From positions 6,138,001-6,202,000 of the forward strand of contig OZ361256.1 of NCBI GenBank assembly GCA_977018835.1: a stretch of DNA of 64,000 nt, in the 5' to 3' direction. Each line of letters opens with the position of its first letter. The stretch's first letter is position 1. The stretch comes from Minutocellus sp. GHC0000111. Lineage: Eukaryota. Positions 3,718-9,238 of this stretch are shown here, one piece after another. The position numbers and the translations under genes were made by a program. The notes under the pieces were generated by a model that worked only from the letters and a program-made list of their open reading frames with translations, was not told the DNA's origin and made no database searches.

Positions 3718-4530
3718 CTATCTTATTTGACATTTGTAAAAATCACACCGTGTCTTCAGCTCATGAACGTTTGCCGCTGGCTTTCCTGCCAAGGGACGTA
3801 GCAACGGCACCTGATATAGCAACAACCCCACCGGATCGGAATCAAACTCATCCATTTGCGATACAATCAAGTTACTGTCCTTTGGGTCAGTTTTCAGTGT
3901 GGTTGTGACCAGATATGGTTTCAAATCAATCTGCACACCTCCCAAAGTAACCATGCCGGAATTCCTCCACAAAACTGTAATGGTATCCGGACCAGTGGCG
4001 GAACAGCACACCAGTTCACATCGAGCTGTGCTTTGATCGAATAATTTGCGCACGGAACGGCAGTACTGCTCATATCCCACCAACGACACCTGCGGATCAC
4101 TAAATGTGAAGGCGTCACTGAAAAGTTCCGGCCGGCCCCTGCCGGTAACGAACCATGAGTTTTCCACGAGACCATCATTGATGGCATCGGCCATTTGCTC
4201 TATGGTCAGATGTTGCTTGGGCATGCTCCAGTCGATAGCATCGAGGGGAGAGGGATCGTCATCCGATACGTAGTTCTTGGCAACGTTGATAAAGGCCGAT
4301 TTAGCCTCGACGTTGCTGTTATTATCGTCGGCAAAAGCAGGAGCTGTGGTAGCAATTGCTGCTACATGTACAGCGGCAGTTTGAACAAATGAACGGCGGT
4401 CCTTACTCGCCGAGAGGTTGAGTGCAGATGTCAATGTAGCAGAAAGTAGCATCAGCACTACGGTCACAATATGTGCCGCAGAAGTACGCCGTGCATTTGC
4501 ATATCTTTTAAAAGGTTCATGACTTGACAT
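3718..4530 (-). CDS. SnoaL/NTF2-like (DUF2358-type) protein, probably plastid/thylakoid-lumen targeted
   Basis: FSDAFTFSDPQVSLVGYEQY motif is typical of DUF2358/SnoaL folds. Hydrophobic signal peptide followed by a Tat-like DRRSFVQ...APAFA segment. Start codon uncertain. Confidence 0.6.
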   Translation of the reverse strand: MSSHEPFKRYANARRTSAAHIVTVVLMLLSATLTSALNLSASKDRRSFVQTAAVHVAAIATTAPAFADDNNSNVEAKSAFINVAKNYVSDDDPSPLDAIDWSMPKQHLTIEQMADAINDGLVENSWFVTGRGRPELFSDAFTFSDPQVSLVGYEQYCRSVRKLFDQSTARCELVCCSATGPDTITVLWRNSGMVTLGGVQIDLKPYLVTTTLKTDPKDSNLIVSQMDEFDSDPVGLLLYQVPLLRPLAGKPAANVHELKTRCDFYKCQIR

Positions 4531-4729
4531 ACACATCTGAATGAATGCAATCAGCCTGATGCTATGCCCGCCTTGGCTGTTATCTGAGGGCACGCCGTGG
4601 CTTCTCGTACGTGTATCTTTCTCCTCTGCTCTGCTGCTGCCACAGAGCATGCAGCTTCCTGACGCCGCTTGTCGAGCTCATAACCTGATTCCCAGCCGCT
4701 CATGTCTTCTTGCTTGCAAATCCTTCGAA

Positions 4730-6921
4730 ATGACTATCGACGAACAGCAGCAACCCGCTAGTACCACCACCACCGACCAACTCCGACCCATGGACGACAA
4801 ATACCTCGTCCCGACGACCATCCCATGTGTGTATTACGTCCCATCTCTCCTTTCCAGTGATGATGCCGCTGCACACTACGACACGCTCCACAAAACTGTT
4901 CCATGGGAAAAGACACCAAAGATCAATCGGTGGGTGGCCCTCTACGAGGACGATGCCGACCTCCAATATCGCTACCGGGATGCTCCGACCGAATCCACAT
5001 CCAAGTCCGGCAATACTGCCAACGAACCCACCAACAAGCCCATATCGTCCTGCCCCCCCCATCGACGCCATACGCACCGCCGTCCAGGAGTTGTATCGGC
5101 AGCAAACCGGCAAATCGGTCCATTTCAACACCTGCCTGGCCAACTTCTACGAGGACGGCACCCAGAGGATAGGCTGGCACACCGATCGGGAGGAGATTGG
5201 AAGGTCGACGCCCATCGCGTCGGTGTCGCTGGGTGCAACGCGCACATTTCTGCTCCGGCACAAGCTCAACGGCATGAGCGACCGTGCCTCCGTCGAGATG
5301 GAAAGCGGGAGTGTCGTATTTATGGAGAATGTCTGCCAAGAGCAGTATTTGCACAGCGTGCCCAAGCAGGCGGACGTCACCGAGGGACGAATCAATCTAA
5401 CGTTTCGATGCAAGACGGAGCACACGGCCGGTGAGGAGGAGCACGAACGACGGGATCGGTGGTTGGAGCGGATTACCGATGAGAAGAAGGCTGAGAATGA
5501 CGACGATTTGGAAGAGATGCTGGCCGCCGAGATCAATGGCGGTGGACACCGTCCTGTGGAAATATTTGGGGACAACATTTGTGTTGGCACATCGCATGAT
5601 GATGAGTACGATGGAATAGTAAGATACACCGTATCGTGCAACATTGGGACGGAGGCTCAATGTGCCGCCGAAATTCGGGAGAAGCTGGCCATCTCAGTGG
5701 AGGAGGATGAAAGCGAATCGAATTCCAATGGGTGGGACGTCGTGGCCAGGCCGTACGGTGTGGCTGGATATGTGGCCTGCGTCGCTCAGGATGGCAGTGC
5801 CGCCATGGACAATGACCAAGCCGCATCGAAACTGCTGGAACTCCGCTCGGCGTTGAATGTGATGCAATATCACGATCATTTTGTCTTAGAGGATGTAGCA
5901 CAGGCCAACGGTGGCATTGCCCTATCGCAAATCGACGGCGAAATGCTGTATGCATTCTACAAGAAGCTGCTGGAGGAGGATGCCGATGGCCGTGTACCAA
6001 CGCTGGCCAAGGCGTCGGCGGACAATCCACTAACCTTTCGTGTGACTTGTGAGCGCACAGGGGACCACGGTTTCAAGGCGCCGACCGTCGAGTATGAAAT
6101 GGGAGGGGCCTGCGCCGAAACCTATGAGAATTGCAAGCCCAAGATGACCGACTTTGACATAAACCTCCGCATCGACGTGGTGGCTAATCGCATCATTATC
6201 GGGACGCAGCTCAATGTGGAGGATCTGTCCAAGCGACACTTTTTGAGATATCGGAACTCTGTGACAATCAAAACCAACGTTGCGTACATCATGTTGCGAC
6301 TGGCCAATATTCAGCCGGGCAGTGTGATTGTAGACGCATTTTGTGGGTCCGGCACCATCCTTCTTGAAGCGCTAGAAATGACCAACAAGAAAGTACAAGT
6401 AATTGGAATGGACGTCAATCGTCGAGCCGCCGAGGGAGCTGGCGCAAATGCTGTTTCAGAAGGGTACAGCCCAGAAATTGCCGAATTCCACTGCTCGGAT
6501 TCCCGTGGATTGCGAAGAATCGTTGGAGATGATCGTAAGGCCGACGCCATTGTATCCAACATGCCTTGGGGTGTTCGCACCGGGCAGAATCAATCAGTCA
6601 ATGATCTTCAACAGCTAGGGTTGGATGGTATGTGCTCAAGCCAGGAGGGAGGATTGTAATGCTGGTTTTGAGAGGGTTGCAGCTAGTGCGTATCCTGAGA
6701 AAGCTAGGAGGAAGATATCGCATCATCAAGTGCATGGTCGTCCGAACAAAAACAATCTGCCGTGCATCCTCGTTGTGGAGAAGGTGGACAGAGACCTTCT
6801 ACACGAGTCCGTAAAGAATCAGCTTGCCTACATGTCTCAATTTGTGAATGTCTCGAAGGAAATGTACCAAGCCATCAACAACGAGACCATTGATGAGAAA
6901 AATCACGTGGCAAGTAGCTAA
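4730..6921 (+). CDS. Fusion of AlkB-family (ALKBH2/3-like) 2OG-Fe(II) dioxygenase with THUMP domain and UPF0020/Trm14-THUMPD3-like SAM methyltransferase
   Basis: AlkB: NxY, GWHTD (HxD), HSVPK (H), RINLTFR (RxxxxxR). THUMP: TFRVTCERTG...EMGG. MTase: DAFCGSGT (motif I), GMDVN, SNMPWG (motif IV), VLKPGGR. Both halves lie in one ORF (4827-6659). Frameshifts near 5055 (C8 run), ~6620 and ~6750. Confidence 0.85.
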
Positions 6922-7040: not shown

Positions 7041-9238
7041 CTAGTACACCTTGGAGTCCGGTGTGAGCTTGTCGCCAAGATTGCTGGAAAATGTCTCCAT
7101 GTTTTCCTCGCCGATGGTATTTCTTGATCTTGGCCTTGCTCGATTACTGCCCATATCAGCATACTCATGCATAATTTCTGGCTCAAAGTCGTGTCGACCG
7201 CGAGGGAAAATGACCTGCGGACCTTGAGAATGACGTTGACGCCCATTGGCAGTGTGGCGGTGGCCGTCGGGCATCACGGCCTTCTCGCCTTGCGGTCTGG
7301 CCAGAACCACCACATTGTAATATAATTTACTCTCCTGCAATGTGAAATATTACGAAATGTAACGAAAGATGAGTAAGAGATAATGAATTCGGTTGAACGT
7401 CCTTTTTCGCTGTTGTTCTCCGCATAAGAACTTACCGTATCGCAGTGAACTCCAACTCCAATCTCTGTGTAGGCCGGGTTGTTCAGCTGTTCCTCATACG
7501 TCTTGGCAAGATACCGCATGGTTTCATCGGGATCGTCGTACGGGGTCCACGCGACGACAGCTGTGATTTCATCGTACGCATATCTCGACTCGATGTTGTC
7601 CCACGTGTTGGAGGGGAGTTCCCCATGCTGCGAAACATACGGAGCCAGAATGGCAGCGTAGTCCATCAGCACCGGATTGGGACAGAACGGAATCTTGTTC
7701 ATTTGCGCGCACGACAGCTGCAGCTTATTGACCAGCGGCCCGACGAGGTCATCGGGCTGGACCTCCACAAATGGCCGGCCGAACAGCTGGGTGTAGTAGT
7801 ACTGTCCCGTCTCCACGTCGCACGTAACGGCCAGCGACATGTGCGTAACATCGTCCGCCATCGTGTTGGACCGATGGCCGGGAGAGTCCCACCACTGCTC
7901 GAACGCACCCTGCGCACTCATGTCGAACCGGCTCAGAATGTTCTCCCTCACGGCCAGGGGCTTGTACCCCTCCCTCTCGGCCCGGTCCTCGGCGGTCGAT
8001 CCGTCGGTGCCAATGTGCGGCACTCCACCCTCCCGCTGCGTGGGGTAGCCATGGATGAGCATGTCGTTGGAGTACCACTGGGCGGCCCGCTGGAGGGCCT
8101 TGTTGTCGAGCGACAGGGGAGACAGACCGGCACTCATGCGCATTTGGTTTACCATGCCCAGTACGGCAAAGGCGACGTCGTTGTGCTCCTCGGGAGAATG
8201 TACCTCGAAGGCTGGGGGGACGGCGGTGGAATGGTGAGCCAGGTGTCTCTCCTCTTCCTCGTAGGACACTGCCAGAAACATGTACATGTTGCGCTCTTTT
8301 TCGTCGTCATCGTCGTCGTCATCGGTATCGGCACCATCCTCCTCGACCTCAACAGCAGCAGCCTTGGAAAAGCCCAGGGCATAGTGCGTGTAGGCATCAT
8401 CCTCACTGATCTCGGGATGCTTCTGCGCCACGTAGGCCTCGAGGGCGTCCCCATCGTGAAGGTTGGTGTACCCTCACGCCGACCCGACGGTGACGGCCTC
8501 GATGCCGGAGGCGTGAAGGATGTCCCGGATGCTGTCGTCGTCGAAGGTTTGGGCGTGATGGAGCATCCGGTCGGCAAAGGCATCGGCCAGATGGTTCAGG
8601 TCGCGGTCATAGATGAGCGGCCGTCTTCGAGGATTGGTGGTCTTGCGGTTTGTTGTGGTTGTCGTTTTGGTGTTTGTGGTGGTGTTGGGCGAAGAAGAAG
8701 AAGAAGTATCGTCATCATCAATGTCGATACCATCATCATCTGTGGAAGCAGCGGTGCTAACAGATACATCTCTTCGGCGTCGGCTCTTTCCACTGCCATT
8801 GGCATCGCGCAGGTTAATCACCTGCGGTTGGTCGTCTCGATCAAGCAGCTCGACCACCGTTCGAGGACCTCGACTACTAGTACTTCGTCTCTCGTCTTCC
8901 ATTTCCATTTCCAAATCATCCTCGAAATCATCCCCGCTGTCTTGAAACCGCGCCTGGAACCGTGCAAAGGGATTGCGCGATTGTCTGCGCCTCCTCCGGC
9001 TCGATCGACGCCTCTCGTCGCGGTCATCTCGGGCAGAGAAGCGAGGCGAAAAGCGATTCCGTCTTCGTGGACGATTGTGCTCGTGCTCATATTCGTCGTC
9101 GTCTCGCGGCACGCGGGGGTCGCGCAGGGGTCGGCCGGGCGCTCCTCTTACAGTGACCGGCCTCGGTGGCTGCCGTCTGTTATACAAATCTTCGAATTTG
9201 GGCAGCGGAACATTGTCCATCGGTCCCTCCCGGTACAT
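7041..9238 (-). CDS. CAP/SCP-domain protein with disordered Arg/Asp-rich N-terminus; one canonical plus two degenerate CAP-like repeats
   Basis: VNQMR..AGL.PL, AAQWYSNDM, HIGTDGS, RENI, WWDSPGHRSN and YYTQLFG match bacterial-type CAP. Intron 7335-7435 (GTAAG..TGCAG). Frameshift near 8475. Start uncertain. Confidence 0.75.

Follow-up and report, generated by a model that had tools for sequence, protein, structure and literature searches.

In the 64,000-nucleotide stretch of Minutocellus sp. DNA analysed here (hereafter, the window), positions 4730 to 6921 were put forward in a preliminary description as coding for an AlkB-type oxygenase with an intact catalytic set, fused to a THUMP methyltransferase. 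The locus raises two questions: whether a gene of this architecture is really present and what a protein combining a putative methyl writer with a putative methyl remover would do. The single open frame at 5055–6615 (plus strand) contains the AlkB iron set, an acidic linker, a THUMP domain and methyltransferase motifs, with H-x-D at 5178–5186, H at 5352, R-x5-R at 5388–5408, DAFCGSGT at 6333–6356 and SNMPWG at 6555–6572. Pfam matches above cut-off were obtained for 2OG-FeII_Oxy_2 (E 6e-29), UPF0020 (E 7e-22) and THUMP (E 1e-4), and the closest solved structures to the fused frame are TrmN, Trm14, ALKBH3 and ALKBH2. The joining of the two enzymes in one frame through an acidic linker is therefore real. 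The gene, however, is not intact: no single frame spans 4730–6921, and three frameshifts had been overlooked. The start codon, ATG 4730, and the stop codon, TAA 6921, lie in frames other than that of 5055–6615, and both are, as proposed, those of the intact gene.

An intact 734-residue relative, P0123, matches the window in four pieces (4736–5059, a second reaching to 6617, 6617–6748 and 6751–6918), with identities of 78, 92, 95 and 89%, respectively. The features of the locus are collected in Table 1. Break 1 falls between the AlkB substrate lid and the catalytic core, and break 2 removes the last methyltransferase strands from the frame. The second residue of motif I (6336–6338) is Ala in the window and Pro in 62 of 63 aligned proteins; since P0123 also has Ala, this substitution predates the breaks.

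Table 1. Features of the AlkB-THUMP-methyltransferase locus (window positions; residues numbered as in P0123)
Feature	Positions	Strand	Basis
Gene piece 1: start codon, AlkB N-terminus and substrate lid (short hairpin up to INRWV, followed by YxYRD)	4730..5053	+	78% identity to P0123 residues 2-109
Break 1: 8 C in a row, one above in-frame relatives; frame shifted before catalytic core	5053..5060	+	X1, X4 like window at about half depth; X2, X6 one base fewer
AlkB catalytic core: H149, D151 (5178-5186), E153, H207 (5352), R219, R225	5055..5408	+	frame, Pfam, alignment
Linker: helix K..T.GE..H..RD (5424-5456) and FGD (5565-5573), both conserved, with a variable acidic stretch between them	5409..5612	+	G233, E234, H237, G279 in 62/62 others
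N-terminal ferredoxin-like domain and THUMP (Pfam THUMP 6021-6203)	5613..6209	+	model residues 296-691 align to whole Trm14
Rossmann-fold methyltransferase: motif I 6333-6356, motif IV N-M-P-W 6558-6569	6258..6615	+	Pfam, structure and profile matches
Break 2: 16 bases absent relative to intact relatives; then stop 6657-6659	6610..6620 (~6615)	+	X1, X2 as window; X4 with 14 more bases, still out of frame
Gene piece 3: methyltransferase strands after motif IV, other frame	6617..6748	+	95% identity to P0123 residues 634-677
Break 3: one base absent (~6749)	6745..6752	+	extra base in X1, X4, X6; place uncovered in X2
Gene piece 4: final strand, helical C-terminal extension (conserved) and stop codon	6751..6921	+	alignment to P0123

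The breaks were compared with short-read data from 4 of 24 listed sequencing runs (X1, X2, X4 and X6). Contigs of X1 and X4 align across the extra C of break 1 with no gap and end one letter short of the bridging threshold; their depth, about half that found elsewhere in the gene, suggests that the extra C is present on one haplotype. The 16-base loss at break 2 was found at full depth in X1, which may be the window's own source sample, and also in X2, which comes from another study. A protein in the collection, P0001, ends at the same site, fitting the different out-of-frame form of X4. Break 3 was seen only in the window and is absent from X1, X4 and X6, so it is probably an assembly error. 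In X6, no single RNA contig was found across the linker.

Since the 16-base loss at 6615 recurs in short-read contigs, the window copy is probably a dead allele, and we conclude that it is a frameshifted, likely dead allele of a conserved diatom gene. Any decay is recent, because the window residues depart from the consensus at 5 of 213 conserved columns, no more than in intact relatives (median 6). The simplest reading is a series of alleles inactivated not long ago. Rescue of break 2 by an intron was considered and rejected, as any GT-AG pair of usual length, judged by eye, would delete motif IV or the helix that follows it. Programmed frameshifting was likewise rejected, since the two alleles at 6615 would require different shifts.

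The gene is flanked by two open reading frames on the minus strand. The divergent one (3718–4533), ca. 200 bases upstream, has a weak SnoaL-like match (E 0.005), and its N-terminus looks, from its predicted sequence, like a plastid-targeting presequence. The convergent one downstream (7274–8473) codes for a CAP (cysteine-rich secretory protein) domain (E 1e-15). There are no tRNA genes within the window.

We next consider how widely the architecture is conserved. A search with the fused frame, whose query and length filter favour fused forms, retrieved 208 proteins, 120 of which were listed; at least 118 of the listed homologues contain both PF13532 and PF01170, and all 120 match both halves in the same order when profiles built from the family, and hence partly circular, are applied. 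Ten of the 120 are transcript-derived, six of these being MMETSP ORFs marked complete; therefore, single mRNAs carrying both domains exist. Automatic JGI protein names also mention both halves. The named matches include Fistulifera, Seminavis, Cylindrotheca, Nitzschia, Pseudo-nitzschia, Amphora, Skeletonema, Thalassiosira and Cyclostephanos; the one named non-diatom among the matches listed is the dinoflagellate Gymnodinium smaydae, which groups with four proteins of unassigned taxon. The fusion is retained in centric as well as pennate diatoms and in a group that includes the dinoflagellate. An alignment of 63 sequences, hand-chosen from the listed matches, showed that H149, D151, H207, R219 and R225 of the AlkB half and D534, G538, N609, P611 and W612 of the methyltransferase half are invariant (63/63). 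In the linker, which is 51–105 residues long and mostly variable, the helix residues G233, E234 and H237 are invariant.

Split genes were examined as a possible norm and rejected: most of the 107 matches among shorter proteins are fragments of the fusion's methyltransferase half. Several 50% representatives end near profile position 424, and many diatom gene calls (P0299–P0310 and P0243) stop at this one place inside THUMP, which suggests a shared intron at ca. 424 that is read through by prokaryote-type gene callers; the window copy is without it. Some splits, e.g., Amphora P0159, may be true. Viral copies were also sought, and none of 32 pattern matches was confirmed. Organelle targeting was considered, as there is an in-frame upstream ATG at 4541, but is not supported, since homologues begin a median of only 8 residues ahead of the conserved start (55 matched of 120); the protein is likely cytosolic or nuclear.

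In phylogenetic trees of the two domains, the fusions form one clade in both. A quick tree built from 95 methyltransferase domains united the 41 fusions with a support of 100 and placed the window gene in an Amphora-containing diatom clade (SH-aLRT 98). When trees of the halves were built separately, 15 of 16 strong AlkB splits recurred in the methyltransferase tree and one was in strong conflict; the two halves are co-inherited in diatoms and the dinoflagellate-containing group. The sister of the fusion methyltransferase clade (98) consists of stand-alone proteins, including those of the choanoflagellates Diaphanoeca and Didymoeca; further outward are stand-alone proteins from diplonemids and other sources, close to bacterial TrmN-like genes. 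The fusion family groups with the bacterial TrmN-like proteins (SH-aLRT 94), apart from a single animal THUMP fragment, in a part of the tree that is weakly sampled and where branches are long, the deeper joins have supports of 80–94 and animals are represented by that one fragment.

Stand-alone TrmN-like THUMP methyltransferases were observed in diplonemids, acanthoecid choanoflagellates and Guillardia (P0201, P0252–P0270 and P0321), and they appear to be a patchy protist family near bacterial TrmN-like genes. Two further proteins carry additional domains. P0346 (764 amino acids), a probable prokaryotic double methyltransferase, combines a tRNA U5 methyltransferase domain (PF05958) with a TrmN-like THUMP methyltransferase, and P0326 has a RING finger ahead of a stand-alone THUMP methyltransferase, which may be a gene-calling artefact. 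With regard to a bacterial operon origin, no AlkB match was found in six-frame ORFs of 160 prokaryotic or metagenomic loci beside related methyltransferases, about seven of them close TrmN-like (3 of 64 and 1 of 64 collection parts covered), which speaks only weakly against such an origin.

The methyltransferase half was analysed with the help of a structure model of intact P0123 (pLDDT 86, pTM 0.69, with a low-confidence middle part of the linker, pLDDT 48–57). The model has the ferredoxin-like, THUMP and Rossmann domains in Trm14 geometry. It matches Trm14 with Z 37.5 and an rmsd of 2.3 over 350 residues and TrmN with Z 32.9; for Trm11, the values are Z about 24 and rmsd 7.0–7.4. The sequence ranking is led by TrmN/Trm14 (E 2e-76 and 4e-58), with RlmL at 2e-22. 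The NCBIfam Trm14 models, which are archaeal, gave 85–103 bits in three fusion proteins against a cut-off of 280. Motif I (D534/F/C/G538) and motif IV (N609-x-P-W) are present in 63 of 63 sequences. Motif IV of the type D/N-P/L-P-Y/F/H acts on exocyclic amines (PMC3367198), and the motif of the fusion fits this type, with the catalytic Asn kept. Since the distance from THUMP to the catalytic site is thought to set the choice between G6 and G10 (PMC9957541, section 4.3) and the spacing in the model is Trm14-like, m2G6 is the predicted product, with G6 rather than G10 as the target.

For the AlkB half, the best matches are ALKBH2/3 (E 2.5e-16; structure Z 22–24, best 24.3), and the iron triad HxD..H with R-x5-R is present in 63 of 63 sequences, with the Pfam 2OG-FeII_Oxy_2 match above cut-off. 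By its HxD+2 spacing, E153 is presumably the equivalent of D135 of E. coli AlkB. Structure 8jnk, an active-site cross-link of ALKBH3, carries a Cys substitution at the position that aligns with E153, which is invariant in the family. In the E. coli enzyme, D135 contacts N6 of m1A, and its mutation is needed for efficient demethylation of m1G or m22G (PMC7968990, PMC11065319). Because a D135-like acid is kept at HxD+2, the sequence favours an m1A/m3C-type substrate and hence two different reactions on tRNA. The same residue is also compatible with action on the product of the partner, since E. coli AlkB with intact D135 still demethylates m2G and m22G in DNA and ALKBH7 strips m22G from RNA; m2G is not among the ALKBH2/3 substrates as tabulated in the available text of the same source (PMC11065319). 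The pocket has peculiarities of its own. The lid hairpin, counted from W to R in a register inferred by motif, has 7 residues in 97 of 102 matched proteins (120 examined) compared with 15 in ALKBH3, and the position of ALKBH3 D194 is occupied by Arg (R152) in 63 of 63. Because of this replacement and the different lid, the substrate may be neither m1A nor m3C. A stable hydroxylated guanosine would be the least likely product, since an oxidised exocyclic N-methyl, as stated for m6A, reverts to the base with loss of formaldehyde (PMC4738411), a fact that we extend to m2G.

Relatives of the AlkB half bear on the nature of its substrate. A profile search of 1.84 billion representatives gave 150 proteins among the matches listed: 105 with the methyltransferase half only, 24 with both halves and 21 with the AlkB half only. 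The last are mostly fragments of the fusion. In four of the others (P0333, P0336, P0367 and P0393), and also in P0428 and P0429, AlkB is preceded by a BMT5-like methyltransferase (PF10354, rRNA m3U). These proteins have a conserved C-terminal tail ending in YF and group together with a support of 99, near the THUMP fusions (88). Their HxD-adjacent residues read HxDFEE (4/4) versus HxDREE in 63 of 63 THUMP fusions, and lid residues differ too. In P0344, the same AlkB subfamily is joined to DUF4326 and to a degenerate part resembling a pseudouridine synthase (a faint match, E 0.1); in Entosiphon (P0388/P0431), it is joined to DUF4326 and UPF0029, and in Balamuthia it stands alone. Since these AlkB relatives are joined to BMT5-like and other RNA-modifying domains, their architectures point to RNA as the substrate of the short-lid subfamily. 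The short lid hairpin of the THUMP fusions likewise favours RNA over DNA. The BMT5-like protein is a second methyltransferase-AlkB fusion; we found no mention of it in the literature searched, which lay mostly outside subscription papers.

The THUMP fusion itself is already in print: the supplement of Iyer, Zhang and Aravind (BioEssays 2016, PMC4738411) lists a "THAPSDRAFT_42543-like" AlkB clade fused to THUMP and methylase domains. Likened to the window family by domains and taxon, the clade has the same three domains, belongs to the same taxon group and is very likely the same family. Fragilariopsis and Thalassiosira sequences are among those listed for it. Its entry is a single line without function or mechanism, and in the available text of PMC4738411 we did not find the dinoflagellate members, the linker motif or the sister BMT5-like fusion. 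No functional study of an AlkB-THUMP-methyltransferase fusion was found in the literature searched, mostly outside subscription papers.

Among characterised enzymes, TrmN (Thermus) and Trm14 (archaea), which make tRNA m2G6, have in common with the fusion the ferredoxin-like, THUMP and Rossmann domains, motif I and the motif IV Asn. The fusion differs from them in its AlkB domain, the Trp that ends motif IV, its 21–28% identity, its scores below NCBIfam cut-offs and a conserved C-terminal helical extension that it shares with the choanoflagellate stand-alone proteins. Human THUMPD3 and THUMPD2 also join THUMP to UPF0020 and make m2G, as is predicted for the fusion, and are without AlkB; unlike them, the diatom methyltransferase domain groups with protist and bacterial TrmN-like proteins in the weakly sampled tree. 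Both human enzymes need TRMT112. With ALKBH2 and ALKBH3, the fusion shares the fold, the HxD..H..R..R set and the acid at HxD+2, whereas it is set apart by a shorter lid hairpin, by YxYRD where they have YTYSR, by Arg at the D194 position and by the attached RNA methyltransferase. ALKBH8 likewise joins AlkB to a tRNA methyltransferase in one chain, but its methyltransferase is a carboxyl enzyme of the Trm9 type, it includes an RRM, and what it hydroxylates is a carbon side chain at U34 (PMC3265494, PMC11065319). The fusion has an ALKBH2/3-like AlkB, a THUMP/UPF0020 methyltransferase of the N2-guanine type and no RRM match; as a conserved single chain it is indeed a system distinct from ALKBH8, as had been suggested.

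The reading that we prefer, with a probability of roughly one half, is that the locus carries a frameshifted and likely dead copy of a gene conserved in diatoms, and that the intact form of this gene encodes a protein of 734 residues that likely methylates tRNA at G6 (m2G6) and likely removes m1A/m3C-type methyls from the same kind of RNA. THUMP would grip the CCA end of the tRNA at the Trm14-like spacing of the model, and the methyltransferase half would write m2G on G6. The AlkB half would act on RNA delivered by the THUMP half, and would erase or repair ring-nitrogen methyl marks rather than its partner's m2G. All activities of both halves are predictions from sequence and structure, and no data on m2G in diatom tRNA were found in the literature searched. 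Of the two options offered in the preliminary description, the coupling of m2G writing to RNA demethylation or repair thus fits best; methylation followed by hydroxylation to a new base is less likely. One can also imagine, as an unlikely course of events, that the halves act in turn on one base: m2G or m22G would be written at G6 and its methyl then oxidised, with m22G trimmed to m2G as proof-reading, the mark erased depending on iron, oxygen and 2-oxoglutarate, or an oxidised nucleoside left behind. Trm14 enzymes can indeed over-methylate to m22G6 (PMC9957541), and AlkB and ALKBH7 are capable of acting on m2G or m22G (PMC11065319), but G6 lies within a paired stem, the D135-equivalent acid is retained, m2G is absent from the ALKBH2/3 substrates listed in the available text of PMC11065319, and loss of the oxidised N-methyl as formaldehyde (m6A, PMC4738411; m2G by extension) makes a stable new nucleoside unlikely. 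In favour of this course, ALKBH8 already combines methylation with a subsequent hydroxylation, invariant residues occur in the linker helix of the fusion, and the lid and HxD-adjacent residues differ in the BMT5-like fusions as if specificity tracked the partner.

If, on the other hand, the halves were independent, AlkB would serve in general repair, demethylating alkylated single-stranded DNA or RNA, and joining the two enzymes would do no more than co-express and co-locate them. The repair enzymes ALKBH2/3 are the top matches, the linker is long (51–105 residues) and mostly variable, the methyltransferase occurs alone in choanoflagellates, diplonemids and Guillardia, and the AlkB half occurs alone in Balamuthia. 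We nevertheless doubt this arrangement: the fusion has persisted in both centric and pennate diatoms and in the dinoflagellate group, its linker keeps invariant residues, the hairpin of the lid is short, and the subfamily has repeatedly been joined to RNA-modifying domains. Less probable still is a target other than tRNA, either U6 snRNA, as for THUMPD2, which methylates U6 at G72, or rRNA, as for RlmL. The partner in the sister fusion belongs to an rRNA methyltransferase family, and language-model neighbours, at the level of a lead, include THUMPD3 and THUMPD2 clusters with an equal score of 0.82. TrmN/Trm14, however, stand far above RlmL in both sequence and structure, and the weakly sampled tree puts the family with bacterial TrmN-like proteins (SH-aLRT 94) and not with the animal THUMP fragment.

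Writers and erasers of RNA methyl groups are usually separate proteins, and ALKBH8 is, to our knowledge, the sole well-studied AlkB-methyltransferase fusion. The architecture described here is already catalogued, and the window copy is broken; natural broken alleles suggest that loss of the gene is possible in at least one lineage. A bolder and rather improbable generalisation would be that the short-lid AlkB subfamily is a modular RNA-methyl editor, joined at least twice in protists to different methyl writers (THUMP m2G and BMT5-like m3U) and each time editing the mark of its partner; in that case, the diatom protein would both write tRNA G6 methylation and erase or proof-read it within one chain, and this acceptor-stem mark would be linked to the supply of iron, oxygen and 2-oxoglutarate in iron-limited phytoplankton. 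With the AlkB-THUMP-methyltransferase protein, a second, unrelated fusion is kept across diatoms, and it offers one soluble protein in which to ask whether AlkB edits its partner's mark or repairs the tRNA that its partner holds.
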